The notes under the pieces: generated by a model
Database searches by the model: none
The model's input: only the letters and a program-made list of their open reading frames with translations
What the model was told of the DNA's origin: nothing
Origin: Escherichia coli
Lineage (GTDB): Bacteria > Pseudomonadota > Gammaproteobacteria > Enterobacterales > Enterobacteriaceae
Assembly: GCF_003991155.1 (NCBI RefSeq)
Contig: NZ_CP031293.1
Reading direction: 5' to 3' (one strand)
Length of the DNA stretch: 64,000 bases
Part shown: in pieces, positions 1,057-22,183 of the stretch
Layout: the number at the start of each line of letters is the position of its first letter
Numbering within the stretch: position 1 is the stretch's first letter
Made by a program: the position numbers and the translations under genes

Positions 1057-2520
1057 TTATTTACATGCATATAACCTTCTGAAATTACTATAACAGTGCT
1101 CGTTCTTACTACCACTACAACGTTGTTCATCATATTCAGCGATTAAAGTTCCAGATATATAACCAAACTGAGGGCTATACGTTGACCCCGGACAGGCACA
1201 TGTCCCTGTATCACTATTCGGTATTACACACTTATATCCAGATACTTGATCGGTTATTGTTATAAAAATACCTTTCAGGCCATCACCACTTGCTGTCTGC
1301 CATTTACCACTGACACACGATAACACTCGGCCTGTACTGTCTCGCCCCACCAGACCATTAGGCGTACATTTCGCATTTAACGTTGCCTGACCATTTAAAT
1401 GGAGATATTCACCTGCTTTGATCCTGCCAGTTGATTCAATTGTTCCATTGGATTTTATCGTTCCGGCGGTAAGATTACCTGACGCATAAATATTACCCGC
1501 ATTGTTCATGTAAGCTTTAACTGTTTTACCGGTTCCTACACCAACAGTCCCTGACGCATACAAGTCATAGGTGCGAACACCGCCAGCCCAGCCAGCTGGC
1601 AGATCGTTTGGATTAAGTCCGTTCGTGGCAATACGACTACCAAATCTCGCCAGACCTGTTGTTGAAAGCGTATTCAGATAAGTATCGGATTTTACCTTCA
1701 GGTTGTTGTTGATATTTACAGGACCATTAAGGGTAGATGTTCCACCCACAGTCAGATCTGATGCAACAGACGCATTACCCGTGGTTTTCAGTGCTCCGGT
1801 TGTTGTTGTCCCTGATGCCGTCATATCTTTGATGTTTTTGATGCTCTTACCACCAAGATTCAGATCACCCGTCATCGGCAACGTTCCATCACGGCGCAGA
1901 TAAACAGAATACATTGAAGAGTTATACCCCACGCGGTAAGCCAGCAATCCACCACCCGTAATATTGCTGTAGCTGTTAGAGTTCTCACTCCACTGACCAC
2001 CATAGCCGGAAGCTATCTTGGTGTTTCTGCTCATCCCACCATCAACACCTGCCGCCTGAACCGCTTTACCTAACAGGTCATAACGAATACGACCACCTTC
2101 TTCCCACGGGCTGGCGGTTGTTATAAGGCCGTTAATGACATAATCAGGCGCTGTTCCTGAACGCTTTAACACAATCTTATAGGATGCTTTTTGCGCGTTA
2201 GTTCCTGTATAGCCTACAGGCAACAGACCTTCATTAATTAACGTCTGGTAAGTGATTTCACAACCAGCAGCCGAACATGTTCTTGGCCCCGGATCGCTAC
2301 TTTGATTGTTGGATGATGACAGTGTGGAAATCTTGTCATATCGAATACTGATATAGCGGTTAACCGCTTCACCAAGCTGTTTAATCTGTGTTCCAACATT
2401 ATCTGCTAATACCGCTTCCTGATTGTTTCGCATATCCTGAAACTTCATAAAAGCGATAAGCGTTCCAATACCTAAAACAATACTGACTTCCAGTAAGGTA
2501 AATCCTTTATTCTTTATCAT
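1057..2520 (-). CDS. pilV: Type IVb minor pilin / tip adhesin, PilV-like
   Basis: N-terminus [17 protein letters not shown] matches the type IV prepilin processing/hydrophobic motif (G|FTLLE); large Gly/Thr/Ser-rich body as in R64-type PilV; GGAGA RBS before ATG at 2520; directly downstream of pilS. Confidence 0.65.
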
Positions 2521-2572
2521 AATTATCTCCCTGTTTTGGCAATAAGAAAGAAAAGGGCTTACGCCCTCTTCA

Positions 2573-3130
2573 TTAAATAGACGTGAAAACTAATGTATTA
2601 CTTGTGGCATTCGTACATGCTGCTGCCGTAGCTGCCACATCGAGTGTTCCTCCTGCGGCTTTAACAACCTTGGTTCCAACCGTGGTAATGTAGAAATTAC
2701 CTGCTGCCGCTGTCGCAATCTTCACACATTCCGCTGCTGGCACATTATCGTATGTGATAGTGAAAGAAGAGCCAGCCGCTGATGATGGTCCTGTAGCTGT
2801 AGCAGCCAGCGTCACATTACCTTTAAAGGCATTAATGGGTTTAGCTGCCGTTCCTGACCCACTTAACATATTGTCAGGGAAGATTTTTGCCTGAACAGCC
2901 ACAGTATTTGTCAGGCCAGTAAAGCTTGATGCCGACGTGTATAATGCTTTAACACCTGCCTGTATGGTGGCAATGTTATTGGATTCTGCCTGCGCTCTTT
3001 GTGAAGCCTGAACCTTGGGATAAACGATAAAAGCCGCTACCACTAATGCAGCAATGATGCCCAAAACAAGTAATAGTTCGAGTAGTGAGAAACCTTTCTT
3101 GCTTTTTCTTTTGTTATTTAATAAAACCAT
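2573..3130 (-). CDS. pilS: Type IVb major prepilin, PilS-like
   Basis: Long basic leader [13 protein letters not shown] followed by [16 protein letters not shown], characteristic of type IVb prepilins; GGAGA RBS 6 nt before ATG. Confidence 0.65.
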
Positions 3131-3525
3131 TATTATCTCCTTTTTTGTTTTAATGATAACTCCTGTTATAACGCTTCTCTCATATCTGGCAATAGAAAGA
3201 GCAAGATATATTTAACTCTATCTGACAGACGGATGAATTAAAAAAGGCAAAGATTTCTCTTTGCCTTCCGGGAGATTTAAAAACAACATTTGTTATCACT
3301 ACTACTGTCATTACTACTTCCTCATGGGATATTTATCATATCTGATAAAAAAGTAATAATGACGTTCACTACATAAAGATAAAAATTAACAGATTACTGG
3401 TCAAACAGAACGCATGATTGAAAAGGAAAAAATATTAATAAAGGATGATCCTGTGTTCTGTTCTTTTATATAGATAACAGATAATAATTAGATATCAATA
3501 CCTGAAGCAAAATAAATTTAGTTTT

Positions 3526-3831
3526 TTATTTTTGTCTTCCATCCATTTGCGCCAGAAACTTCCTGCCTGCTTTTATATACGTTATTTTTTCAATATCATT
3601 CAGGTCAGGAACTGAAAGCAAAATCCCCATAACGAGTTCTTTATCCACCTGTTCGATATCGCAATGCATAGCTTTAGCTACTTCCGCGCCAAGTATAATC
3701 TTTAGCCTTGTTTCAATTTTCTTTCGTTCTGATTTCTCCAGAGACTTAAGACGATTAAGTTCAAGCTGAGCAAAAGCAACCTTTTGCTTTAATGTTTTTT
3801 CTGTTCTTGATCTTTTACTTTCATCACTCAT
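3526..3831 (-). CDS. Hypothetical small coiled-coil protein; weak resemblance to TraD-like relaxosome accessory proteins
   Basis: ORF; start overlaps the stop of the upstream gene by 4 nt (ATGA-type coupling); motif RKKIETRLKIILGAEVAKA recalled as similar to Ti-plasmid TraD, from memory only. Confidence 0.35.
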   Translation of the reverse strand: MSDESKRSRTEKTLKQKVAFAQLELNRLKSLEKSERKKIETRLKIILGAEVAKAMHCDIEQVDKELVMGILLSVPDLNDIEKITYIKAGRKFLAQMDGRQK

Positions 3832-4193
3832 ACAACATCATCCTTACCCAAAAAATAGGCAAATACTTCATCCACGCCTTTCATGGCGAGAACATCACTG
3901 AACAGCAAAATAGACGTCGCCAGATTTCCCGCTTCATCTGATGGTATAGACCTAAAGAACTCCATCACTTCATCTTCCTCATGGTATCGTGTCATCGCAT
4001 CAACTTTTATTTGCCATTCACCAATAGCAAAAAGCGCTGCTTCAAAGCAGGACTGAAATCGTTCTATATCAGGGCCAAAATGATACGTTATTCCGTCTTT
4101 ATATTTCGCAATGAAAATTTCAGTAATTTTTTCATTACTGCTCTGAAGAATATGAGTATCAATAGTAAAAACATAGGCCAGTTGTGCATTCAT
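3828..4193 (-). CDS. Hypothetical protein, first gene of a two-gene overlapping operon
   Basis: Clean 121-aa ORF with AT-rich upstream region; no recognisable motif. Confidence 0.4.
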   Translation of the reverse strand: MNAQLAYVFTIDTHILQSSNEKITEIFIAKYKDGITYHFGPDIERFQSCFEAALFAIGEWQIKVDAMTRYHEEDEVMEFFRSIPSDEAGNLATSILLFSDVLAMKGVDEVFAYFLGKDDVV

Positions 4194-4497
4194 TTTTTAT
4201 CTCCTTTGGTTATCGAATATTATATTTAACTATCACCAAAGAGAAATGACGTCAAATTAATAAAGTATTAGATATTACAATAGGATGTTAATCCTAAATC
4301 TACAACCGAAAATATCCCTTGTAATTATCCTTAATTTAAAATATTAAGTCATATGCACAATAATTAGTGATTCACCTAATCCAAAATCATCAGTAATTAA
4401 GTTATCAAATGATACACATTATTCTAAAACTTCTTTTATCTATATCCTCCAACGTTTACAATGCATGATAGGCAACGATTAATCATAAGAGGTAATT

Positions 4498-5376
4498 ATG
4501 AATATTTTTAGTCTCATCACTGATCCTGATAATGCAGTTTATTTGACTTTAGATAAATTTTATAAAAAAACGCATAGACATTATCCCTATATTCAAAAGG
4601 TTAATGGAGAAACTAAAGCATACGCTTTATGCCCAAGATGTCACAATCCGGTCCTTTTGGTTAATAGAATAAATAATCAGACGGAATCAAAAACTTTATA
4701 TGCTAAGCATGTTAAACATGATGTAATGGGTATCGCATCATATTCTCAACAAGGTTATGATGATTGCTCACTTGCAAACCCAACAAATCTTGATGCAAAA
4801 ATCAAAAGAGATATTAATAATAAATCAAATAATGAAATAAAAGATGCTGTTAAAAATTATTTCGATCTACTTATATACTCAATTGAATCACATATAGGCA
4901 TCAATTTTTCTGATTCCGTTTTAGCTCAAATGCTTGAGGATTTCAACGCTTGTGATGGACACCAGTATAGAGCGATTAACTTATATAATTTACCGTTATC
5001 ATTTGTCTACATCGCAAATGCTCAGGATCTTTACGGTTGTAGAGTAAACGGAAAAATCAAAGAAAATATAGATAAAAACTCAGAATCATTTATAACATCC
5101 GGTACAGAACTTTATGATAAGAGCCTGTATTATGTTAATAGAAAGAAAGGCAGTCCTTATAATAAAATCCTGTTTTATTTCTCTAATCATACCATTTCGA
5201 CAGAAAATGATGATGAATCGGTAATGTTATATATTGTAGAAAAAAAACAGGATCAGACTATAGATTCAGCAAAAATACTCTATAAAGAAAAAATATATTT
5301 TGATGGCACATATTTTTTTAATACTATGAAAAAAAGAGCACGGCTAAACGATTTAGCAAAATCAATTATTCAATAG
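4498..5376 (+). CDS. Hypothetical protein with Cys/His motif (CPRCHNPV ... HVKHD), possible zinc-ribbon or HNH-like
   Basis: 292-aa ORF, very AT-rich, Lys/Asn-rich; divergent from the 3526-4193 operon. Confidence 0.45.
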   Translation: MNIFSLITDPDNAVYLTLDKFYKKTHRHYPYIQKVNGETKAYALCPRCHNPVLLVNRINNQTESKTLYAKHVKHDVMGIASYSQQGYDDCSLANPTNLDAKIKRDINNKSNNEIKDAVKNYFDLLIYSIESHIGINFSDSVLAQMLEDFNACDGHQYRAINLYNLPLSFVYIANAQDLYGCRVNGKIKENIDKNSESFITSGTELYDKSLYYVNRKKGSPYNKILFYFSNHTISTENDDESVMLYIVEKKQDQTIDSAKILYKEKIYFDGTYFFNTMKKRARLNDLAKSIIQ

Positions 5377-5379
5377 TAT

Positions 5380-5688
5380 TTATTCTGGAATGCTAATTAT
5401 TTTTGATAACGGCTGGTTTAATACCAGCTTTATCAAGTCGATAGATATTGATGATGTATCAAATTGTTCCAACTCATACTCTGCAAAAGGTAAATCGCCG
5501 ACCACTTTTATATTCCCCATTATCTTTCCCAGAATATCACAAAATTCTTGATCTGTTTTTGGTTTTTCAATCAATCCTAAATCCAGTAACTTTTGATATT
5601 CAAATAATGCTCTAAGTGTTGCATTTTCCCAAAAAGTAAATTCCTGAAAATATGTTCCGTCTTCATATCTAGATTTTCTAAACTCCAT
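5380..5688 (-). CDS. Hypothetical protein
   Basis: 102-aa ORF convergent with 4498-5376; no recognisable motif. Confidence 0.35.
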   Translation of the reverse strand: MEFRKSRYEDGTYFQEFTFWENATLRALFEYQKLLDLGLIEKPKTDQEFCDILGKIMGNIKVVGDLPFAEYELEQFDTSSISIDLIKLVLNQPLSKIISIPE

Positions 5689-5989
5689 TATATCTCCTTA
5701 TGTTAATTATTATACATGGAGTAATACAATTATTCTCATCAGTCAAATCATAAAATTATAATAAATTCCATGAGTGGGTAAAGCTCAGTAGAAAAATAAA
5801 ATAGTGCAACGCATGTGATAGTATTTACTAACCAAAAACATCTGACACTCTCCGCGTTACTTATTTTTGCGCATTCGTGATTTTATTTTCACCTATCAAT
5901 TTTTAACTCTATTTTTCAATCTCAACCTGTGAATTGTGCAACACATAACACTCTCTGTTTTATTGGTTTTTTTCATCAAATTTAGCTAT

Positions 5990-6036
5990 CCCGCCTTACG
6001 GCGGGAATAATTAATACCTCTTTTGCCCTTACGGGC
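5990..6036 (+). other. Candidate oriT: two GC-stem hairpins sharing a TTAC loop
   Basis: cccgcc-ttac-ggcggg (5990-6005) and gccc-ttac-gggc (6025-6036), about 300 bp upstream of the relaxase gene; relaxase genes usually sit next to their oriT. Confidence 0.3.
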
Positions 6037-6337
6037 CTTTTCTTTACTCTTTTTGTCCTGTGGATGTGAAACCTACACCTTTAATCCAGTTTGCGCCGCT
6101 TATTCCGGCGTATTATTTTACAACAATACATATATTTCGTATTAATTGATAAGAGGGGCATTTTACATTGGCTTATTTTCTTAAAGACAATGCCCACCTA
6201 TACACTGCGTAGCAGTGTGTGGGGTCTACCGACGGTTGCCTGCCGCAGGCTAAAAGCAAAACCAAGGTCAACGTCAACCCCGAAGTTTTTCTGACGAAAA
6301 ACTAACAGCAGCATTTATATTTGAGGTTATATTTTTA

Positions 6338-7819
6338 ATGGCGATTTTTCATCTGGATTTTAAAATTGTGAAACGAAGCGAAGGCATGACTTCTGTTGCG
6401 AAAGCTGCCTACCATGCCCGTACACGTATTACGGATGATCGCATTGGAGAAACATTTGATTTCAGCCACAGAACAGATCTTCATGGTCATATTATATTGG
6501 CACCTGTTTCCGCACCCTCTCATATTGTTGAAAGCTCCTCAACACTCTGGAATGAAGTTGAAAGAGTGGAACGCCAGAACAATGGTCAAACAGCCCGTTA
6601 TTTTGATGTCGCTATCCCCGTAGAACTCAGTAATGATGACAAGAAAAAATTGGTTGCTGAATACTGCCAGAAGAACTTTGTTGATAAGGGAATGATTGCC
6701 GATATCGCATTTCATGATTTAGACGGTAAAAATCCCCATGCTCACGTTATGTTAACCCTGAAAACTGTTGGTCCCGAAGGCTTCGGTAAAAAAGACAGAA
6801 GCTGGAATGATAAGAAGATAATGATCCAATGGCGTGAGTCATGGGCCACGATGTCAAACAGCTACCTTGAAGCTATTGGAAGTGAAGAACGTATCGATCA
6901 CCGTTCTCTCAGGACGCAATGTGCTGATGCCCTTACCCAAGCAGAAGAAGCATTCAGCGCTGAAGAGAAAGCATTCTGGCTTGCCAAGGCAACAGAAACA
7001 AACCGCCCGGCAATGCAGCGTGTTCATCGTGCTAAATGGAATAACACCGAGTCTCAGGAACAGCGAGCTGCTGAACAAGCTCAACGCGATCATCAAATTG
7101 AGGAAGCAAAGAAGGTCTACACTACATTCAGTGAGCTACCACTGGAAATCGTGGTTGATGTTCGCTCTTACTCTGTTTACCAGCTTCCTGAACCGGAAGA
7201 GATCGTTCTCCCTGACTTCCCAGCTACAACTAAACAGCAACCTGTTTCAGCGACACCAGCCATAAGCAGAAGACCAGCAGCAAAATCTTACCGTGATCCC
7301 AGTAAGGTCAGTAAAGTAAATGTTTCAGGGAAGAAATCCCCTGTTCTGGTTGCGCCTGAACCAACTGCATCCACTAAATTGAAAACCCCATCTCTTCAAA
7401 AAACCAGAGCGATGAACCGCGCTCCTGTGAGGAGTAGGAAACAGACCAAGCCCCGCCAGAATGGTTTGTTTAAACGTTTCACGCTACTGATAGTAGGATA
7501 TATAAGAGAGAAATTTATCTGGGCCAAAAGGAAAGCAGATACCACTGATGCTGACCATGACAAGCGTATCGCAGAGAACTATATCTATGATGAAGTGCTG
7601 GGTGTCAATGTTCCACGTTCGGAGTTTGAAAAACGTACCAAATTTAACAATGGTGACTATAAATTAACACCTGATGAAATCAAGCGTTTCCCAAGCCGTC
7701 CTAATCAGGAACAGCCGGAAGTTAATAGAAGCATAGATCTCACACCTTCAATGCCACCAGAACACATGAGGCAAGGAAGCGCGCCAAAACTGAGTCCACC
7801 GAGCCATAAGAGACATTAA
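6338..7819 (+). CDS. mobA: MobA/MobL-family (MOBQ-type) conjugative relaxase
   Basis: N-terminus MAIFHLDFKIVKRSEG...AAYHARTRI parallels RSF1010 MobA (MAIYHL...), with the histidine triad region HAHVMLT and IDHRSLRTQ; C-terminal half is low-complexity. Confidence 0.8.
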   Translation: MAIFHLDFKIVKRSEGMTSVAKAAYHARTRITDDRIGETFDFSHRTDLHGHIILAPVSAPSHIVESSSTLWNEVERVERQNNGQTARYFDVAIPVELSNDDKKKLVAEYCQKNFVDKGMIADIAFHDLDGKNPHAHVMLTLKTVGPEGFGKKDRSWNDKKIMIQWRESWATMSNSYLEAIGSEERIDHRSLRTQCADALTQAEEAFSAEEKAFWLAKATETNRPAMQRVHRAKWNNTESQEQRAAEQAQRDHQIEEAKKVYTTFSELPLEIVVDVRSYSVYQLPEPEEIVLPDFPATTKQQPVSATPAISRRPAAKSYRDPSKVSKVNVSGKKSPVLVAPEPTASTKLKTPSLQKTRAMNRAPVRSRKQTKPRQNGLFKRFTLLIVGYIREKFIWAKRKADTTDADHDKRIAENYIYDEVLGVNVPRSEFEKRTKFNNGDYKLTPDEIKRFPSRPNQEQPEVNRSIDLTPSMPPEHMRQGSAPKLSPPSHKRH

Positions 7820-11001: not shown

Positions 11002-11613
11002 CTATTTTTGTTTATATAAATCGTAGGAACTTAATTTTTTAGATTTCTCATAGGCATTTTCAATGTATAAAGATACATCTGCTAAAAATCGGTCTTCTTC
11101 TATCAATGAAATATAAGAACCAGTCAATTGATCATATGATTTGCACTCAGGGCAACAATATTTATCTTCTGAAGTTAAATTAAACCTATTATTATTAATA
11201 ATGTCATATAGTTCAGTTGTGTCAATAGTTCTTGATGAACATCCATCAGGCTTGATTGAAGAAGATACTAACCAGTCATAGCTATTATTAACCTTCATTA
11301 TCACACCAACAATGCCATTAGTTCGGGAAGTGGTTCCTCCTCTCTTGTATTCTTTCAATGCATATTCAATTTCCCAGTCAATCCATTTACTTTTAATCAT
11401 ATTCGGGGAAATAATAACGATTAAAACAGATGTCCCGAAAATCATATTTTTAAGATTGTTCTTTATATTATCTACTGTTGTATTACTTATATCAGGAGAC
11501 TCCGATGTTTCCCCTTTATAGTAAACAGCATCATCACCTAATGCCTTGACAATTTTGTCTCTTAAATCCTGTGCTTCACTATATTTATATGATATGAATG
11601 TTTCATGAGCCAT
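11002..11613 (-). CDS. thsB: Thoeris ThsB, TIR-domain protein
   Basis: N-terminal ETFISYKYSEAQ and WIDWEIEYAL are typical TIR-domain signatures; 16 bp downstream of thsA on the same strand. Confidence 0.8.
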   Translation of the reverse strand: MAHETFISYKYSEAQDLRDKIVKALGDDAVYYKGETSESPDISNTTVDNIKNNLKNMIFGTSVLIVIISPNMIKSKWIDWEIEYALKEYKRGGTTSRTNGIVGVIMKVNNSYDWLVSSSIKPDGCSSRTIDTTELYDIINNNRFNLTSEDKYCCPECKSYDQLTGSYISLIEEDRFLADVSLYIENAYEKSKKLSSYDLYKQK

Positions 11614-11629
11614 AACTTCACCTAATATA

Positions 11630-13066
11630 TTATTTATTCAGTTTGTTTATGATTTTTATTACAACTTCTATTGTTTTTTTTACCGAAAAATCTTTTTCAG
11701 TAAGCTCAGACAAATCATTATATATCCATTCATTACTTCCATAATATTTCTTAGGATCTTGTGATATTTGTTCAAATATATATTTAGACATATACCCGGT
11801 ATTGGGTAAAGGAATTGGTACAAGGCCATGTTGAACAGCAATCTCAAACTCTCTAAATACTCCCCTAGCATTTACTATATCATTATTTTCCTCTTGTTTA
11901 TTTCCAAAAATAAACAATGCAATACCACCAAGAGGAATCATTCTCTGTCTATACTCCTCCCAAAGTTCTTGAATATCTTTCCCCTTACTGACAGTTTGTG
12001 GAAATGGTCTAACAATGAGCTGTTCTTCTGATAATTTATCTGGCCTACTATAAATTGCATCCAACGCACCATTTATCACAGAACTTCCGACGCCCCATCC
12101 AAATCCATTCACTATCCTATAATTATTCTTTATAATCTCATATGCTAATGTGTGAATAAAATCTAATGCTTTAGGTCTTTCAAGATCCCCATATTTTTCT
12201 GCACTACCAGAAATAAATATCGTTTTCTTTTTAAATGATTGCTCTATCTTAGCTAGAATTTTAGGGATGTCAGAATATTCATCTATTAATAATACTTGTA
12301 TACCAAATCTCTTGAGATCATCGATTCGCAGTTTTTGTTTTCTGATCTTATAATTTACTGTTTCTTCATCATCTAGGGAATTATTAGCCTCATTCTTCAT
12401 AAAGCAATAGTGTGTCCTCTTGTCCCCAGAATGAGTATACAAACGACTCAAAATGTAATCCAGATTTGGGTCGGTAAAACTAAACCCTATGAATAGAAAG
12501 GTTTTTGATATTAAATCTCCGCTAAGTGCGGTGATAAATGAAGCGTGTGTTCTGTAGTATTTTTCATACTGCTCTTTATATAAAATAGCCTTGGATGGGG
12601 ACGAAATATCACCATGCATTTTATATACTATCGCGTCTCGCTTAGGTCGTGTTGTATTTAAATCATCTATGTTTCTTTTTACATCTGCAATTTTGTAAAC
12701 TTTCCGCAGACTATCTTCAATTAAAGTGTCATAGTTTGTTGTCCAAAATGTCTTAATCGGTAAACGAGCAATTATATTATGAACCTCTGATGGCTCGGCT
12801 TGCTCAGAAAACTCTTCGATTATCTTCCTTGTGAGTTTTGTAGCCCCTTTCTTTTCATTAACATGAAATTGAGCAAGCGATATTAGATCGTCTTCTTTAT
12901 TAATGTCTAAACTAAGCTCTTCTGCTATATCGCTAAGTAATTCTTTCCAATCAACATAACCTTGACTTTTAGACATTCCTGCGCCAGAAAAAATAGCAGC
13001 ACAATCATTTTCAAGATCTTTAACAAAATCTTTTATGAAAACTTCAATTTCATTACTAAACGTCAT
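11630..13066 (-). CDS. thsA: Thoeris ThsA, SIR2 (NAD-binding) plus SLOG domain protein
   Basis: From ATG at 13066 (GGAG RBS 9 nt upstream) the protein MTFSNEIEVFIKDF...AAIFSGAGMS...TTNYD...MHGD (SIR2) then IFISGSA...GFGWGVGSSVINGALD (SLOG) closely parallels Bacillus cereus ThsA as I recall it. Confidence 0.85.
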   Translation of the reverse strand: MTFSNEIEVFIKDFVKDLENDCAAIFSGAGMSKSQGYVDWKELLSDIAEELSLDINKEDDLISLAQFHVNEKKGATKLTRKIIEEFSEQAEPSEVHNIIARLPIKTFWTTNYDTLIEDSLRKVYKIADVKRNIDDLNTTRPKRDAIVYKMHGDISSPSKAILYKEQYEKYYRTHASFITALSGDLISKTFLFIGFSFTDPNLDYILSRLYTHSGDKRTHYCFMKNEANNSLDDEETVNYKIRKQKLRIDDLKRFGIQVLLIDEYSDIPKILAKIEQSFKKKTIFISGSAEKYGDLERPKALDFIHTLAYEIIKNNYRIVNGFGWGVGSSVINGALDAIYSRPDKLSEEQLIVRPFPQTVSKGKDIQELWEEYRQRMIPLGGIALFIFGNKQEENNDIVNARGVFREFEIAVQHGLVPIPLPNTGYMSKYIFEQISQDPKKYYGSNEWIYNDLSELTEKDFSVKKTIEVVIKIINKLNK

Positions 13067-13274: not shown

Positions 13275-14237
13275 TCACGATGGTGATGTTTCATCGGACA
13301 TCCTTACATTATAAAGAAAAACCAGATGCATATTTACATCATTTCTTTTCTTAAAATAGCTATAACGCTGGAGGCTCAGCCATTTTGATGTTGCCAATAC
13401 GTATGGGCAGCCCTCCTTCCTGCTGGCACAACTTCTTAATGGATTGCCACTCCGCTTTTCAGACTCCATGTGAGAAGTGAGCGAATCAAAAGCACCGTCG
13501 GCTACGACGATGGTAGGTTCTTCATCTGTTTCATTGCCGATCGACTCCGTATTTGTGCTTTCAGCACGTTCTTCTTCCAGTTCAGCCAGACTCGCTTTCA
13601 GCTCATCAAGGCTGCTGGCTGCGTCTTTTGGTGCATAGAAGAACAGCCCGCTAATGAAGATGGCTTCCATAACCTCTCTAAAAGAAAACGAGGTATCGCC
13701 ATAAACAAAGCAACTGTGCTTGGAACTCTTCACACCCGATACGTTTTTCTTCAGCAAACCGTCTTTCGGTGAAGTCATTAATGTCTGTTTGCTATAGAGG
13801 ATTACAGGAAGATTTTTAATTTGTTGAACATCGCCGCTGATACTCCAGCGTTCTTTATCTCCTTTGATAAAGCCGGAAGCATCACAGCTACTTTCTATGT
13901 CAAACTCATCAGTCGGGAAGCGCTCGCGATTAAAATAGGTCGAAAAATCCTCCCCTTCTTCCATATCCTGACGCTTGTAAGCGCGATAAACCGAGCTTCG
14001 ACGGTCAATTCCGATCCATTCAATATCCCATGCCGTTGGCCCGGACGGTTTTCTTACCTCATCTATATAAGCACCAACATCTCTGTCCAGATAAGCTGCT
14101 AACAAAGCCTTCCATGGTTCTATTGCCAGAAAGATACTTGCCAGCGTTGTTCCTTCTTCAATCAGAACGGTATGGTGGAAGAACCGGAGAAGAAAGAACG
14201 GATCGGTATTGGCTATGACGTTCTGGATGGATAGCAA
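13275..14237 (-). CDS. Hypothetical protein with acidic central region
   Basis: 320-aa ORF immediately upstream of thsA; no recognisable domain. Confidence 0.35.
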   Translation of the reverse strand: MLSIQNVIANTDPFFLLRFFHHTVLIEEGTTLASIFLAIEPWKALLAAYLDRDVGAYIDEVRKPSGPTAWDIEWIGIDRRSSVYRAYKRQDMEEGEDFSTYFNRERFPTDEFDIESSCDASGFIKGDKERWSISGDVQQIKNLPVILYSKQTLMTSPKDGLLKKNVSGVKSSKHSCFVYGDTSFSFREVMEAIFISGLFFYAPKDAASSLDELKASLAELEEERAESTNTESIGNETDEEPTIVVADGAFDSLTSHMESEKRSGNPLRSCASRKEGCPYVLATSKWLSLQRYSYFKKRNDVNMHLVFLYNVRMSDETSPS

Positions 14238-14369
14238 TGGAACGGCAGCGGTTTCATCGTAATTGGATTGAAACCGTAGTATTGCATCGGAACAAAAATT
14301 AACTTACCTTCCATTGCTCATCCTTCTCCTGTAGTTATCAGACTAAATATTTTACCAGATCATAGGTTA

Positions 14370-16022: not shown

Positions 16023-16568
16023 ATGTTAGATAATAAAATAAAAAAATCAAGAAGAGGTCTACCTCGCCATGTAAAAAACCCATTCCTTAATGATACAAAT
16101 ATACATACAAAAACAGGTATCAGACGTATCACAACAGGAAAAGATCGCTTAGCCGTAGTAAATGAAAATACAGGAGAACAGGTTGGGCATGGTGGTTTCT
16201 TTCAGTCAATGGAAGTAGACAAGACACAGTTCGTGAAGCTTTATGTGGATGGCGTATCAGCTATTGAGGGTTTATCCTCATCCGGTAAGAAAGTATTTAA
16301 GATACTGTATCTTGCTATTAGAGACAATAAAGATACAGATACGATATTAATGTCATTCGATATTGTTGATCAAGAGATTGTAAAAATATCAAGAACGACA
16401 TATTTCAAAGGGATGAAAGAACTTGCTGACAAGAAATTTATTGCTGAGACCATGATACAGAACTATTATTTTATTAATCCAGACTATATGTTTAATGGTG
16501 ATCGTTTAACTTTCATGAAAACTTATTACTTGAAGGGTAAAAAGAAAACAGCGAATAATAAAAATTAA
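16023..16568 (+). CDS. Hypothetical basic protein, possibly DNA-binding
   Basis: 181-aa ORF with AAAGGGGAAAG RBS-like region upstream; weak resemblance to small replication/DNA-binding proteins, not verified. Confidence 0.35.
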   Translation: MLDNKIKKSRRGLPRHVKNPFLNDTNIHTKTGIRRITTGKDRLAVVNENTGEQVGHGGFFQSMEVDKTQFVKLYVDGVSAIEGLSSSGKKVFKILYLAIRDNKDTDTILMSFDIVDQEIVKISRTTYFKGMKELADKKFIAETMIQNYYFINPDYMFNGDRLTFMKTYYLKGKKKTANNKN

Positions 16569-16722
16569 TTACCAACGGGAAAACAGGTTAAAAAATCGCC
16601 GTAATAAACTACGATTACATTAAAGGTATTTTCTTGCCAAGAGAGAAACATCACCAATTTGACACCTGAACCATATCTCGTAATATAAATATATCAACCA
16701 TTTTATTTACGAGGTATTTCTT

Positions 16723-17202
16723 ATGAGAAAAGTAAAAACAGACAACAGTGATTTAATCGAATACGTAAATACAGTTAAAGAACTAAAAAATCACATTCCA
16801 ATAGAAGAATACAGAAATGAATATCGTAAACTGCGTTCCGATGATATTCCATTGGTTAAAGCTCAGAAATTTAAATCTGCCCATACCGAACTTCGCAGAC
16901 TTGAAAAAAAGAGAGAGTCTCTTATTGAATACTTTATTGACGAGTTAAATCCCATCAGCAGTTCAAAAGCTAACACATCAGCGAGATCAACTAGTAATCT
17001 CGATTTATTTAACGAACGCGTGTTATACCGTAAGGCTATTTCAGAAAAGAGTGATGAAGAAATAGTAGCCTTGGTCATAAAACAACGCACAGAAGCCGCT
17101 GTTGAGTTCCAACGTTCAATTGAACATAGTCTTGAGCAACTATCTCGTATCTCGTCAGAGTTCGAACCAGCAAGCCAAAAGCGCAGGAAAATGTCTCTTT
17201 AA
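16723..17202 (+). CDS. Hypothetical protein
   Basis: 159-aa ORF, charged and coiled-coil-like. Confidence 0.35.
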   Translation: MRKVKTDNSDLIEYVNTVKELKNHIPIEEYRNEYRKLRSDDIPLVKAQKFKSAHTELRRLEKKRESLIEYFIDELNPISSSKANTSARSTSNLDLFNERVLYRKAISEKSDEEIVALVIKQRTEAAVEFQRSIEHSLEQLSRISSEFEPASQKRRKMSL

Positions 17203-17359
17203 AACGACTCTATGCTATTCGTGTGAAATGTGATGTATTAGATTGCTTATGCAATAATGTTTACTATATTATTTACTGACTGTTTTTTTTGATTTTTCCA
17301 ACAGCACCGTAAGCATTATTTTTATTAATCGCCTATTTTAAAACACCGGATGACATACT

Positions 17360-17764
17360 ATGAGTGAAGCTCTCAAGGCACTGAACAATATTCGTACACT
17401 TCGCGCACATGCTCGTGAAACAGATCTGACAACTCTGGAAGAGATGCTGGAAAAGCTCTCTGCTGTCGTTGAAGATCGCCGTGAGGAAGAAAATTCAGCC
17501 CGTAAAGAACAAGAAGAACGTCAGGCTAAACTGGAAGCCTTCCGCCAGAAATTGTTAGAAGACGGTATCGATCCTACAGAACTACTCGCTGCTGTTAGTT
17601 CATCCCAGCCTAAAGCCAAATCAACTCGTGCTCCTCGTCCTGCTAAATACAAATATACAGATGAAAACGGTAATGAGCAGACTTGGACGGGTCAGGGCCG
17701 TACTCCTAAAGCAATCGCCGCTGCTATCGAAGCTGGTAAGACACTGGAAGACTTTGCAATCTAA
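17360..17764 (+). CDS. H-NS family nucleoid-associated protein (island-encoded paralogue)
   Basis: [20 protein letters not shown]...[25 protein letters not shown] aligns closely with E. coli H-NS, including the DNA-binding TWTGQGRTP motif. Confidence 0.85.
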
Positions 17765-17827
17765 CCGCTACAGCATATCCGGGCTTCACTGTTCTCAAGA
17801 TAACAGGCCCGGAAAATATTCGATTTT

Positions 17828-18208
17828 TCATCCAAGGCTATCCCAGTCTGGCAGGTTGTTAACGACCTTTCGCCACCAATGATACGCAGCCATAAGAACA
17901 CCAAAACAAATACCTGCGACGACGCTTGAGACAAATGCAGTGCCCGGTTGTATCCCTGTATCCTTCCAAGTAAAAAACCACATACAGATCCCCCATGCCG
18001 GACCAAACCATCCACCCATCAACAAAGTGATTTGCCAGAATGAGGCAAAAGGTAGCGGTGGTATCTTGAGTCCAGCTTTCCATGCGAGGTGTAGCAAAGG
18101 AGGGGCATAATTACTTCGCCACATCTTCTTGCTTTCCATGATGGCAATAGCGTGTTTCTTTTTAGCTTCAAAGCCCATACGGTTCCCTCCAGCTCCACCT
18201 TTACTCAT
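17828..18208 (-). CDS. Hypothetical inner-membrane protein
   Basis: 126-aa ORF with two or more hydrophobic, Trp-rich segments. Confidence 0.4.
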   Translation of the reverse strand: MSKGGAGGNRMGFEAKKKHAIAIMESKKMWRSNYAPPLLHLAWKAGLKIPPLPFASFWQITLLMGGWFGPAWGICMWFFTWKDTGIQPGTAFVSSVVAGICFGVLMAAYHWWRKVVNNLPDWDSLG

Positions 18209-18282
18209 CTATCGATAAAAAGCCACAATAGACAATAATGATTATCAATTCCATGTATGTAAGTCAAAAATAACTCAAATAG

Positions 18283-18525
18283 TCATTCCTTTAGATCTTC
18301 TGGCGAAACCCGGTCACATGCCATTTTCTCAAGCATTCTTTGTAATCTTTTCATTTTCAACTTACGCGCTTTTTTCTCACCAATCTCCTGATAGTATTCT
18401 TCACGACGTTCGTTGACCACGCTCCTGAAATTTTTCAAAAGCTGTTCAAGTGTTTTGATGTCAGTAGTTGCGGCTTCCGCTTGGATTTTTTTATACATAT
18501 ACATCACATGAAATTCATCGATCAT
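18283..18525 (-). CDS. hnsT: Truncated H-NS-like protein (H-NST-like, oligomerisation domain only)
   Basis: 80-aa protein with TLEQLLKNFRSVVNERREE matching the H-NS N-terminal dimerisation region but no DNA-binding domain. Confidence 0.6.
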   Translation of the reverse strand: MIDEFHVMYMYKKIQAEAATTDIKTLEQLLKNFRSVVNERREEYYQEIGEKKARKLKMKRLQRMLEKMACDRVSPEDLKE

Positions 18526-18598
18526 TTTTTAGCTCCTTGAATAGACAAATAATATTTGTTATCAGCCCCAAGAAGGGGCCGATAGACACCAGAACATA

Positions 18599-18895
18599 TC
18601 AACATATTGATTCCGCCAGAACCGTATAATGCATTTTGGCTAATGCCTGCTTAACCCCCTTAAAATCCACCTCAGATAGTTTTTCAGCCGCGTTCTTTTT
18701 CCATGCTTTTTTCAGAAGATGTTTCTCCGCATTTCTCATCGCCAGATCGATTAGCCTACAGACAAACTCATGATCCATTACATGCGTTATAATCATATTA
18801 CTGGTCGTTTTATCCTTTGAGTTAAAAAGCTCCGCGTAGATATGCAAGGACACAACATAAAAGATTTCAGTATTTTTATTTTTAAATGTATTCAT
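18599..18895 (-). CDS. Hypothetical protein
   Basis: ORF 18599..18955; likely start MNTFKNK at 18895. Confidence 0.3.
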   Translation of the reverse strand: MNTFKNKNTEIFYVVSLHIYAELFNSKDKTTSNMIITHVMDHEFVCRLIDLAMRNAEKHLLKKAWKKNAAEKLSEVDFKGVKQALAKMHYTVLAESIC

Positions 18896-18939
18896 TGGCT
18901 TTTCCTTTTGGTTAATATTAAAAATGAAATGCTGTAGCA

Positions 18940-19242
18940 TTAGCGGTATACACACTTATAGACAATCCAAAGCTGACGAAGGTGTTGTTTTACCTTACTG
19001 TGGCTTACTTCTCCATAAATCCGATTCCTTTGGTCTTCTTCTGTGTCATCATAAAAATGATATCTCGTTTTTTTAATGATACTTTCCATAATGTCATTCA
19101 TATTGTATTTATTGTTGAGAAAATAATAAAAATCATCTGGTGCATTCCTCTGCAATTCGTCCATATAGTTCCTAAAATAACATTCGGCTTGTTCAATAAA
19201 CTGTTTTGTCGTAATAAGTTCTATCTTCATATTCTTCTCCAT
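18940..19242 (-). CDS. Hypothetical protein
   Basis: 100-aa ORF. Confidence 0.3.
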   Translation of the reverse strand: MEKNMKIELITTKQFIEQAECYFRNYMDELQRNAPDDFYYFLNNKYNMNDIMESIIKKTRYHFYDDTEEDQRNRIYGEVSHSKVKQHLRQLWIVYKCVYR

Positions 19243-19311
19243 TATTATTTAGGATAATAAAATGCCCTGTGCGAACAGTTATCTGTTCGACACGAGATCT
19301 TGTTTCTGTTT

Positions 19312-19530
19312 TTATGCAGCGTTCTGGCGTGAGTTTCGAATAGTCGTTTCAATCCATTCATCAATCTCACTTTCAACAAAAGCAACACACCTCGGACCTA
19401 TTTTTACTCTGTCAGGAAAGTTTCCTTCCTTAATACGCTCATATAAAGTCGTGCGACTGAATCCCACTCGATTTAAAACATCAGGAACGCGGATAAATCG
19501 TTTTACGCTGGTTTCAATATTTTCTTTCAT
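19312..19530 (-). CDS. alpA: AlpA-family phage regulatory protein (MerR-like HTH)
   Basis: IRVPDVLNRVGFSRTTLYERIKEGNFPDRVKIGPRCVAFVESEIDEWI matches the AlpA pattern; AGAGGA RBS 6 nt before ATG 19530. Confidence 0.7.
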   Translation of the reverse strand: MKENIETSVKRFIRVPDVLNRVGFSRTTLYERIKEGNFPDRVKIGPRCVAFVESEIDEWIETTIRNSRQNAA

Positions 19531-19745
19531 TGTCTGTCCTCTATTATTGTAAGTAATCTCTATGAGATTTCGCTTTTCTCTATGTTGTTTCGACGTGAAC
19601 AATGATAGCGATTTTGCTTATGGTAATTTAGGGACGTTCAAAGAAGTTTTTTTTGAAAAATTCGAAGGGGCACGGATGGAAAGATAACGGTTAACACTGG
19701 ATGAGATCACGTTCGCTCGGAGCGAACGTAACCCTTTTACTTGGC

Positions 19746-20639
19746 TTATTTTTTCTTATTCCTGTCGTCTTCTACATGCTTTTCAACAGGGGAGTCTTTC
19801 AAGTGGTTGTTTTCCATCATGTAATCTTCAAGCGATTTCAGATAGCTCGCATCCGTCAGAAAAGCCATTGCTAACGGGTAGTCCGTTGCCTTTAGCATTC
19901 CTTCATCACGATCGTTGTCGCTGTCCTCGTGAAGCAGCGAAGAAATCAGTGAAAGCGGGATTTTAATGCCGTTATCTTCTCCCCAGAAGATCAGGTCCAT
20001 CATCGGGATAAGACGATATTCAATGATTTTTCTGAATGTGCTTTTGCCGAAACGATACTCTCTTGGCGCTGGAGACTTCATCTTAAGCTGTCTCTTCCAT
20101 TGAGGGATCAGCACTTTCAGATGTTCAATGATTTCTTCAGTTGATGCCTCTTCCAGATGAATATCGACAGTAATGCGTGAAAGATTATTAAGGGATGTTT
20201 CTTTTAGATACTCGGACAGAAATTCGGATTCGCTTAACGCGGAAAGCTCAGGCGTGGCTTCGGTTAATGCCAGCGTTTTCGCATAAAATTGCGCGTGGCT
20301 TCGTGTCGTAGGATTTACCGCGTAGGTTCTGGCAAGCTCATGTCCAAGGGTAGCGGTATCACCACTGAAAAAGATTTCACCGCTGAGGATCTTGTTGCGG
20401 TAATCATCCAGCATTAATCGGTTAAAGGTAGGTATGGTGTTCCGGCTCAACAACATTCTGTAAGCCAAGATACGCCGCTCAACCTCAACATAAAACTGCT
20501 GTAAGGTGAGTTTCTCTATCGCCTCATATCGTTCCACATCAAACCATGCTTCCAGTGCTTTCCTGATTTCACTTCTTTTCATCCATCCTCCAACAATCCA
20601 TTTCCTTTGATATATCTTCACAGGATCCGTTTGGAACAA
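19746..20639 (-). CDS. Hypothetical protein occupying the position next to tRNA-Ser where an integrase would be expected
   Basis: 297-aa ORF, no tyrosine- or serine-recombinase motifs recognisable; same orientation as alpA. Confidence 0.4.
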   Translation of the reverse strand: MFQTDPVKIYQRKWIVGGWMKRSEIRKALEAWFDVERYEAIEKLTLQQFYVEVERRILAYRMLLSRNTIPTFNRLMLDDYRNKILSGEIFFSGDTATLGHELARTYAVNPTTRSHAQFYAKTLALTEATPELSALSESEFLSEYLKETSLNNLSRITVDIHLEEASTEEIIEHLKVLIPQWKRQLKMKSPAPREYRFGKSTFRKIIEYRLIPMMDLIFWGEDNGIKIPLSLISSLLHEDSDNDRDEGMLKATDYPLAMAFLTDASYLKSLEDYMMENNHLKDSPVEKHVEDDRNKKK

Positions 20640-20860
20640 TTGAAGTTCAACTGTTTTGTCATCAGAGACGGGGGAATGGCTAAGTTGTTGTTAAGAGTGT
20701 GAACTCGAGAGCATAAAAGTGGATGCCCGACGCGCGGCAAAATGGTAAAAAACAGCATCAGTAGTAAGAAAAATTGAGCGAGAGAAAGGAATTTTAATGC
20801 AGGGATTTATGCATGACAAAATCAAAAATACTTTGTAAGTGATTGATTTTGTTGAATGAT

Positions 20861-20950
20861 TGGCGGAGAGAGGGGGATTTGAACCCCCGGTAGAGTTGCC
20901 CCTACTCCGGTTTTCGAGACCGGTCCGTTCAGCCGCTCCGGCATCTCTCC
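20861..20950 (-). tRNA. serU: tRNA-Ser (anticodon CGA), serU
   Basis: Reverse complement reads GGAGAGATGCCGGAGCGGCTGAACGGACCGGTCTCGAAAACCGGAGTAGGGGCAACTCTACCGGGGGTTCAAATCCCCCTCTCTCCGCCA, matching the E. coli serU sequence as I recall it. Confidence 0.95.
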
Positions 20951-21043
20951 GTTCAGATGGTTGCCATGATGCCAGGAAATTTGGCATTTTAACAGTCCCT
21001 GTCCGTGCAATTTTGTTCAAGTGACGAGTTTGCGAGCAAAACG

Positions 21044-21841
21044 ATGATTAAGTGGCCCTGGAAAGTACAAGAATCAGCACATCAAACTGCCCTTCCCTGG
21101 CAGGAAGCACTATCGATCCCCCTTTTAACGTGTCTGACGGAACAGGAACAAAGCAAATTAGTCACTCTTGCCGAACGTTTTTTACAGCAAAAGCGGCTTG
21201 TTCCTTTACAGGGCTTTGAACTGGATTCATTAAGAAGCTGCCGGATAGCACTTCTATTTTGCCTACCCGTTCTGGAGTTAGGACTGGAATGGCTGGATGG
21301 TTTTCATGAAGTCTTAATTTATCCTGCGCCATTTGTGGTCGATGATGAATGGGAAGACGATATCGGTCTGGTGCATAACCAACGTATTGTTCAGTCAGGT
21401 CAGAGCTGGCAGCAAGGGCCTATCGTTTTGAACTGGTTGGATATACAAGATTCTTTTGATGCTTCTGGTTTTAACCTGATTATTCATGAAGTCGCTCATA
21501 AGCTGGACACCCGTAACGGCGATCGCGCCAGCGGAGTTCCCTTTATTCCGTTGCGTGAGGTTGCTGGCTGGGAACACGATCTTCATGCTGCAATGAACAA
21601 CATTCAGGAAGAAATCGAATTGGTTGGCGAGAATGCGGCGAGCATCGATGCTTATGCTGCCAGTGATCCTGCTGAATGTTTTGCCGTACTTTCTGAATAT
21701 TTCTTTAGCGCCCCAGAACTTTTTGCTCCTCGTTTCCCTTCATTGTGGCAACGTTTCTGCCAATTTTATCAACAAGATCCTTTGCAGAGACTGCATCACG
21801 CTAATGATACAGACTCGTTTTCGGCGACGAATGTTCATTAA
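21044..21841 (+). CDS. mtfA: MtfA (Mlc titration factor A, zinc-dependent peptidase)
   Basis: MIKWPWK... and HEVAHKLD zinc-binding motif; near-identical over most of its length to E. coli MtfA, with a divergent C-terminal tail. Confidence 0.9.
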
Positions 21842-21941
21842 TTAACAACTTTGCAGATTAATTAACCAATTGAAATGACTTATGAAATTTATTGTTGACA
21901 GACAAGGTACCGCTAAGTAATATGCGCCCCGTTCACACGAT

Positions 21942-22017
21942 TCCTCTGTAGTTCAGTCGGTAGAACGGCGGACTGTTAATCCGTATGTCACTGGTTCGAG
22001 TCCAGTCAGAGGAGCCA
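21942..22017 (+). tRNA. asnT: tRNA-Asn (anticodon GTT), asnT locus
   Basis: TCCTCTGTAGTTCAGTCGGTAGAACGGCGGACTGTTAATCCGTATGTCACTGGTTCGAGTCCAGTCAGAGGAGCCA, matching E. coli tRNA-Asn. Confidence 0.95.
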
Positions 22018-22183
22018 AATTTTAGTCTTGAGACATCTCTATAAGTCTCAGGATAGTTAAAAAACAAGAACTTATCTTTACCCGGTTGTCTCGCAAGAGG
22101 CTGCTGGGTTTCTTGACATCCATAGTTTTTAGGGGCCTAATCAGGGGCCTCACGGTTCGGTGAGCAAACGGAGCCCCCACGCT

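Follow-up and report, generated by a model that had tools for sequence, protein, structure and literature searches.

The hfp–hnsT Locus

The stretch of DNA analysed here (in the following the window; 64,000 nt) is E. coli chromosome, because it is 99.99–100% identical to E. coli chromosomes: positions 1–38700 are 99.99% identical to NZ_CP041996.1, from whose RefSeq annotation, together with ARAGORN, the layout in Table 1 was taken, and the 1.5 kb from 17200 to 18700 show 100% identity with many complete E. coli genomes. The interval 17360–18525 holds three open reading frames, those of the H-NS paralogue Hfp, of a protein with the domain DUF6404 and of the truncated H-NS-like protein H-NST. 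The two H-NS-like genes had been described in a preliminary description as a convergent pair. They do point toward each other, but they are not adjacent, since the DUF6404 gene lies between them, on the hnsT strand and downstream of hnsT.

Table 1. Features in and next to the window (positions are those of the window unless stated otherwise).
Feature	Position	Strand	Remarks
zinT	before window start		RefSeq annotation
Tyrosine integrase gene	cut by window start		adjoins zinT; RefSeq annotation
Type IV pilus genes, TraD, MobQ relaxase	1057–7819		within serU island, upstream of Thoeris
ThsB and ThsA (type I Thoeris)	11002–13066	-	RefSeq and PADLOC
Frameshifted hypothetical gene	13360–14314	-	RefSeq annotation of an identical genome (region L001, 16161–17115); many stop codons
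RepL	16023–16568		between Thoeris and hfp
DUF4756 gene	between Thoeris and hfp		RefSeq annotation
hfp (= hnsB, hns2)	17360–17764	+	ORF, 134 aa; PF22470 and PF00816
Hairpin	17778–17813		in the 63 nt that separate the stop codons of the convergent genes hfp and DUF6404
DUF6404 gene	17828–18178	-	116 aa; RefSeq annotation of identical genomes; an upstream ATG at 18208 would give 126 aa
hnsT	18283–18525	-	ORF, 80 aa; PF22470 alone, without DNA-binding domain
Shine-Dalgarno sequence AAGGAG	18533–18538	-	7 nt before the start codon of hnsT; strong
Genes for 98-aa and 96-aa hypothetical proteins	18599–19230	-	upstream of hnsT; RefSeq annotation
AlpA-like excisionase/HTH gene	19312–19530	-	72 aa; phrog_66 (E 1.7e-12), phrog_2790 (E ~2e-12)
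DUF6387 gene	ends at 20582		RefSeq annotation
Right-hand direct repeat	20852–20874		overlaps serU 3' end; region L001, 23653–23675
tRNA-Ser (serU, anticodon CGA)	20861–20950	-	ARAGORN; island boundary
mtfA	between tRNA-Ser and tRNA-Asn		core gene
tRNA-Asn (asnT)	21942–22017		ARAGORN
Second island	22184–64000		own tyrosine integrase and complete T6SS; RefSeq annotation

The Two Islands in the Window

That both genes lie on one island holds true: hfp and hnsT are inside the island at serU, and so is the Thoeris system. Between zinT and serU an AT-rich insertion is found that is flanked by direct repeats and carries a tyrosine integrase gene next to zinT. The repeat, TGGCGGAGAGAGGG, which is the 3' end of serU, has its left copy at 1717–1739 of the corresponding region (L001) of an identical genome, approximately 1.08 kb before the window start; the two copies are 21,936 nt apart. 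The island thus delimited is 21.9 kb long, which matches the 22.5–23 kb published for the serU island (PMC7074111, PMC2814080), and its GC content is 30–43% vs. approximately 50% for the core genome, a composition typical of H-NS targets. It looks mobilisable, like the EARL-type islands as described. Among its mobility genes are those for a PilV shufflon-type tip adhesin, a BfpA-like type IV pilin, TraD and the MobQ relaxase. Of the defence and T6SS loci only the Thoeris genes share this island with hfp and hnsT, ThsB being a TIR protein of 203 aa (PADLOC E 1.4e-85) and ThsA a SIR2/STALD protein of 478 aa (E 8e-203); PADLOC gave no defence-system membership for Hfp, H-NST or the DUF6404 protein.

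The type VI secretion system (T6SS), which the preliminary description had put on the same island, is located elsewhere. The serU island ends at the tRNA-Ser gene, and the T6SS belongs to a second island at asnT; it is set apart from hfp and hnsT by the tRNA genes and mtfA, by a second integrase and by its GC profile, and its assignment to their island was therefore rejected. The core of the T6SS has 56–60% GC, which is well above the E. coli average and atypical for an AT-rich H-NS target. The system comprises tssA–M, two Hcp genes, VgrG, DUF2169, a 1,472-aa PAAR-like protein, Rhs fragments together with an imm11 immunity gene, and copies of ISAs1. The asnT island also carries a RelE/ParE fragment and an IS3 element. 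In strain CFT073 the yersiniabactin HPI is found at the same tRNA-Asn.

Hfp

For both H-NS-like proteins the matches in Pfam, NCBIfam and the PDB are far beyond chance. In Hfp, Pfam finds the Histone_HNS_N domain at residues 1–78 (E 2.4e-24) and the C-terminal Histone_HNS domain at residues 95–134 (E 7.3e-17). The alignment shows that the protein contains the sequence TWTGQGRTP, i.e., the DNA-binding Q/RGR motif, with the same letters as in H-NS, and that the N-terminal segment NNIRTLRA is likewise the same. The NCBIfam models for H-NS (E 3.6e-52, 176 bits) and for StpA (E 2.4e-49, 167 bits) both match Hfp from end to end. The equivalog cut-offs of these models are, however, 211 bits for H-NS and 202 bits for StpA, and since Hfp scores below both, it is a paralogue and neither H-NS nor StpA itself. 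In agreement with this its identity to the K-12 proteins is 62% for H-NS and 55% for StpA.

The alignment to H-NS, StpA, Hfp and H-NST that had been proposed as a check was run; it identifies the 134-aa protein as Hfp and the 80-aa protein as H-NST. Hfp of the window is 94% identical (126/134) to Hfp/H-NSB of CFT073, with which it shares one 90% protein cluster, and with its two domains it is indeed the full-length island-borne H-NS paralogue that it had been taken for. The eight substitutions (window residue first, CFT073 residue second) are H17Q, T24A, S34T, A35T, V36I, A78S, S80G and A86T; none of them hits the DNA-binding motif. In identical genomes the RefSeq label of the hfp product is H-NS family protein. 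Residue 17 (window 17408–17410), which lies in the N-terminal helix and adjoins the conserved NNIRTLRA segment, is His in the window and Gln in H-NS and in CFT073 Hfp; in five other Hfp alleles sampled it is Gln in two and His in three.

H-NST

The 80-aa protein has Histone_HNS_N as its sole Pfam domain (residues 1–79, corresponding to positions 1–76 of the 79 of the model; E 2.6e-11); PF00816 and a recognisable DNA-binding fold were not found in it by Pfam. The NCBIfam H-NS/StpA models reach it over model positions 5–75 (E 8e-7). Its top PDB match is H-NS 1–83 in entry 3NR7 (E 6.7e-6, residues 6–78), and it aligns to H-NS from residue 1 to approximately residue 77, with a three-residue insertion after position 55. 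H-NST therefore presumably retains the first dimerisation site and the larger part of the second one, whereas the end of helix 4 is lacking. The 80-aa protein had been thought to resemble only the H-NS dimerisation domain, which is correct in that it is confined to the N-terminal part but is too narrow, as nearly the whole oligomerisation domain is present. The sequence AAGGAG, 7 nt before the ATG, supports the start codon assigned to this ORF.

[quoted passage not shown] Identities of 91–96% to characterised proteins, taken together with the matches in Pfam and the PDB, settle the question of the fold. With its neighbour Hfp, in contrast, the identity is just 29%. Columns that are invariant over seven aligned H-NS, StpA, Hfp and H-NST sequences include A18, L26, E27, L30, R40–E43, D68, P72 and L75. 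The residues Ala16, Leu30, Arg60 and Arg63, for which functional importance has been reported (PMC3897749, PMC7074111), are all present, and a lysine/arginine-rich stretch, KKARKLKMKRLQR, is conserved. Arg60 aligns with Lys57 of H-NS, a residue in the second dimerisation site. In some RefSeq records the 80-aa protein is labelled hypothetical protein.

Comparison with Known Relatives

As reference loci we used those of CFT073 and E2348/69 and, for the core paralogues, hns and stpA of K-12. [quoted passage not shown] The window agrees with CFT073, the strain from which the names hfp/hnsB and H-NST(UPEC) originate, in island, insertion site and gene order: DUF4756, hfp, DUF6404, hnsT, two hypothetical genes, the AlpA-like HTH gene, DUF6387 and tRNA-Ser follow one another in both, and positions 16656–22023 are 96.8% identical to the CFT073 region at the nucleotide level. 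Hfp of UPEC 536 and CFT073 (Müller et al., 2010; Fitzgerald et al., 2020) is, as in the window, a two-domain protein of 134 aa that is encoded on the serU island and has the same Q/RGR motif. The two H-NST proteins differ at three positions, where CFT073 and Nissle 1917 have V16, K32 and H54 and the window has A16, N32 and R54. In the CFT073 island the segment from the relaxase gene to the lipoprotein gene is annotated with two TIR proteins, one of which is the TIR NAD+ hydrolase TcpC, and with a macro-domain protein; since this cargo differs from Thoeris, TIR-type cargo varies between otherwise syntenic islands.

H-NST of E2348/69 is, like that of the window, an 80-aa protein with the N-terminal domain only and with Ala16, Leu30, Arg60 and Arg63. 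The seven substitutions (window residue first) are I23L, N32K, E50D, L61A, M64L, K79I and E80D, of which three fall in the basic C-terminal part. In E2348/69 the genes upstream of hnsT are also those of the window, namely those for the 98-aa and 96-aa hypothetical proteins, the AlpA-like HTH protein and DUF6387, so that hnsT adjoins the module with the recombination directionality factor (RDF) and DUF6387 in all three strains. The EPEC island IE3 is located, however, at an Asn tRNA gene, whereas the copy in the window is at serU together with hfp, and on its other side the EPEC gene is followed by an 80-aa hypothetical gene and a PIN-domain gene (region L006, 11974–13121) rather than by DUF6404 and hfp. 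The EPEC protein that has been studied experimentally therefore works without a co-resident Hfp.

A similar arrangement is known from the EARL (ROD21-like) islands of Enterobacteriaceae (Piña-Iturbe et al., 2018, 2020), on which H-NS homologues of 132–134 aa and of 78–90 aa are encoded in opposite orientation, and which resemble the window also in the RDF/excision module beside the pair, in being AT-rich and mobilisable and in their pilus, relaxase and TIR-type cargo. A full-length homologue is encoded on 33 of 54 EARL islands, 14 of which have in addition a truncated homologue that runs the opposite way; the short and the long homologues form separate clades, and a role in regulating island genes has been suggested for them (PMC6035254). 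It should be noted that the serU island differs from EARL islands in its integrase and in its attachment site, which is serU and not an Asn tRNA gene (PMC7074111).

An H-NS paralogue on a mobile element is also found in Sfh, encoded on R27/pSf-R27, a "stealth" homologue considered to leave the host's supply of H-NS intact upon the arrival of AT-rich DNA. By function Hfp may be likened to Sfh, although the latter is plasmid-borne and belongs to another clade. Sfh is not known to have a paired truncated antagonist.

The finding is thus an ordinary one in that it re-identifies a published gene pair. The two proteins, their opposite orientation and the idea of a silencer and an anti-silencer are already known (Williamson and Free, 2005; Müller et al., 2010; and the EARL papers), and for the serU island of CFT073 the co-occurrence of the two genes in opposite orientation has been published as well (PMC6035254, PMC7074111).

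Frequency and Alleles

The full module of 1,166 bp (at least 80% coverage) is present in 275 of 5,426 complete E. coli genomes, i.e., in about 5%, and any part of it in 666 of them. In a large protein collection the exact H-NST of the window, the CFT073 form and the EPEC form were each found on at least 1,000 contigs.

The residue at position 16 deserves attention because Ala16 was reported to be essential and the A16V protein to be inactive, H-NST of CFT073 having Val16 (PMC3897749). The alleles were counted with probes of 56 nt that have codon 16 in the middle, so that almost all of their 28-mer seeds include the variable base. Exact matches were obtained in at least 158 genomes for the window-type Ala16 allele (GCG), in at least 169 for the CFT073-type Val16 allele (GTG) and in at least 13 for the EPEC-type Ala16 allele (GCA), these counts being lower bounds that do not directly reveal the co-presence of hfp. 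Six further full modules were therefore sampled individually. The module of Nissle 1917 has Val16; the other five, which are 96.3–98.9% identical to the window at the nucleotide level, have Ala16 beside an intact hfp. Ala16 H-NST beside Hfp is a common combination, and from these sequences Val16 looks like a lineage-specific derived allele.

The serU-island H-NST treated in the papers cited here is the CFT073 form with Val16, which is reported to be inactive, whereas this strain and most carriers of the serU island outside the CFT073/Nissle lineage have Hfp together with an Ala16 H-NST that is predicted to be active. Whether such an active H-NST antagonises Hfp, or controls island cargo such as Thoeris, would bear on the balance of silencing and expression on mobile islands.

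Proposed Function of the Pair

We consider the two genes to be orthologues of the serU-island hfp and hnsT, with Hfp acting as silencer and H-NST as its dominant-negative counterpart that antagonises H-NS, and would put the probability of this reading at about 90%. The evidence obtained here consists of identity, domain content, key residues, synteny and island boundaries; the binding to H-NS, the de-repression of proU, bgl and LEE and the formation of heteromers of Hfp with H-NS are taken from published work on orthologues that are 91–96% identical. Thus Hfp of strain 536 was found to co-purify and cross-link with H-NS, to complement hns phenotypes and to be repressed by H-NS (PMC2814080). 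By homology to the 536/CFT073 protein, Hfp of the window would bind AT-rich DNA through its C-terminal Q/RGR motif, would oligomerise by means of its N-terminal domain, both with itself and with host H-NS, and may serve as an extra or back-up silencer. In strain 536, Hfp phenotypes became visible only when hns was mutated (PMC7074111); the contribution of Hfp in wild-type cells may therefore be small.

H-NST antagonises H-NS at proU and bgl, probably via heterodimers (PMC7074111). The general statement of the preliminary description that truncated H-NS proteins on pathogenicity islands antagonise H-NS is borne out by the EPEC orthologue, for which the antagonism was shown experimentally (Williamson and Free, 2005, as summarised in PMC7074111 and PMC3897749). 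H-NST of the window is predicted to join oligomers of H-NS, and presumably also those of StpA and Hfp. Having neither the DNA-binding domain nor the terminal part of the second dimerisation site, it would poison filament growth and DNA bridging, so that genes silenced by H-NS would be de-repressed in a dominant-negative manner. The loss of DNA bridging that N-terminal H-NS peptides cause in vitro (PMC5647153) agrees with such poisoning. Having Ala16, as does the active EPEC protein, it is probably an active antagonist. Its activity in this strain is inferred from these likenesses, and it may have an effect on Thoeris, on the pilus and transfer genes or on excision.

The 80-aa ORF could also be seen as a decaying remnant of a duplicated hns or hfp gene without a function of its own, because it is short, corresponds to no more than the N-terminal half of a protein of the H-NS type and is labelled hypothetical in some records. 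This is hardly credible. The low identity to Hfp shows that it is no recent truncation of Hfp; length and reading frame have been kept in EPEC, in UPEC and in every genome sampled; the ribosome-binding site is strong and the exact sequence is on at least 1,000 contigs; short and long forms fall into separate clades (PMC6035254) and the EPEC orthologue is active experimentally; and the sampled hnsT alleles show neither a dN/dS near 1 nor frequent frameshifts. A different role for the same protein has more in its favour, namely that H-NST acts mainly as a co-activator which binds DNA and assists anti-silencers, for example Ler, in displacing H-NS at specific promoters, and less as a dominant-negative subunit of H-NS oligomers. 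Levine et al. found that H-NST binds LEE DNA directly, with gel shifts of LEE1 and LEE3 that depended on Arg60, Arg63 and Ala16, and Arg60 and Arg63 contribute to both activity and DNA binding (PMC3897749); both arginines and the basic stretch are conserved in the window. The direct binding to LEE DNA means that a model of pure poisoning may be incomplete. As the principal function we nevertheless regard co-activation as very unlikely, since H-NST has neither the C-terminal domain of H-NS nor a recognisable DNA-binding fold, since the defect of the R60Q protein could be one of protein-protein contacts in view of the position of Arg60 in the second dimerisation site, and since truncated N-terminal H-NS peptides by themselves abolish DNA bridging in vitro (PMC5647153).

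The preliminary description went further and suggested that the element tunes the silencing of itself, including the defence and T6SS loci, the pair thus being a self-contained rheostat of one island. Such self-tuning has been voiced earlier as a hypothesis for EARL and serU islands (PMC6035254, PMC7074111), and it is in line with an AT-rich island that carries a homologue of the silencer, its antagonist and, on the same DNA, thsA and thsB. The idea as put forward we see as unlikely: the T6SS is part of the other island, with its own integrase and its high GC content, and the loci on which H-NST and Hfp have been reported to act, i.e., proU, bgl, LEE, fimbriae and capsule, lie outside the island.

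Genes Next to hnsT

The genes from DUF6387 through DUF6404 are all on one strand with gaps of 44–216 nt, those within 18599–19530 being separated by 44–81 nt, and a terminator scan from DUF6387 to DUF6404 found no terminator-like site between the genes. Promoter and terminator scans of hfp, hnsT and the upstream genes gave no more sites than shuffled sequence, and operon boundaries around hfp and hnsT can therefore not be called from them. From the arrangement of the genes it is possible that hnsT is co-transcribed with those at 18599–19530. One could go on from there to a life-cycle switch of the island, in which hnsT would be co-transcribed with the AlpA-like excisionase and active H-NST would be coupled to excision or transfer, transiently lifting the silencing of pilus, relaxase and Thoeris by H-NS and Hfp, with Hfp as a direct target of H-NST. 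We mention this scheme, which is built on gene arrangement, as quite unlikely.

The DUF6404 protein belongs to phrog_31022, a family of unknown function, and its gene has the same position in CFT073; a search of PADLOC and NCBIfam with the product gave no match. The hairpin between hfp and the DUF6404 gene is moderately stable; it folds, as plus-strand RNA, with -16.9 kcal/mol (z = -2.65 vs. shuffled sequences) and may be a shared transcription stop of the two genes. As a called terminator it was rejected, because it has no canonical U-tract and was missed by a simple terminator scan.

The 90% clusters returned for H-NST also hold its 98-aa neighbour (18599–18895), and the cluster of the DUF6404 protein holds 80-aa H-NST variants. 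Paralogy of H-NST and the 98-aa protein, which such a mixed cluster might suggest, was rejected, because the two sequences are unrelated; the mixed clusters look like a clustering artefact, perhaps caused by read-through or fused gene calls.
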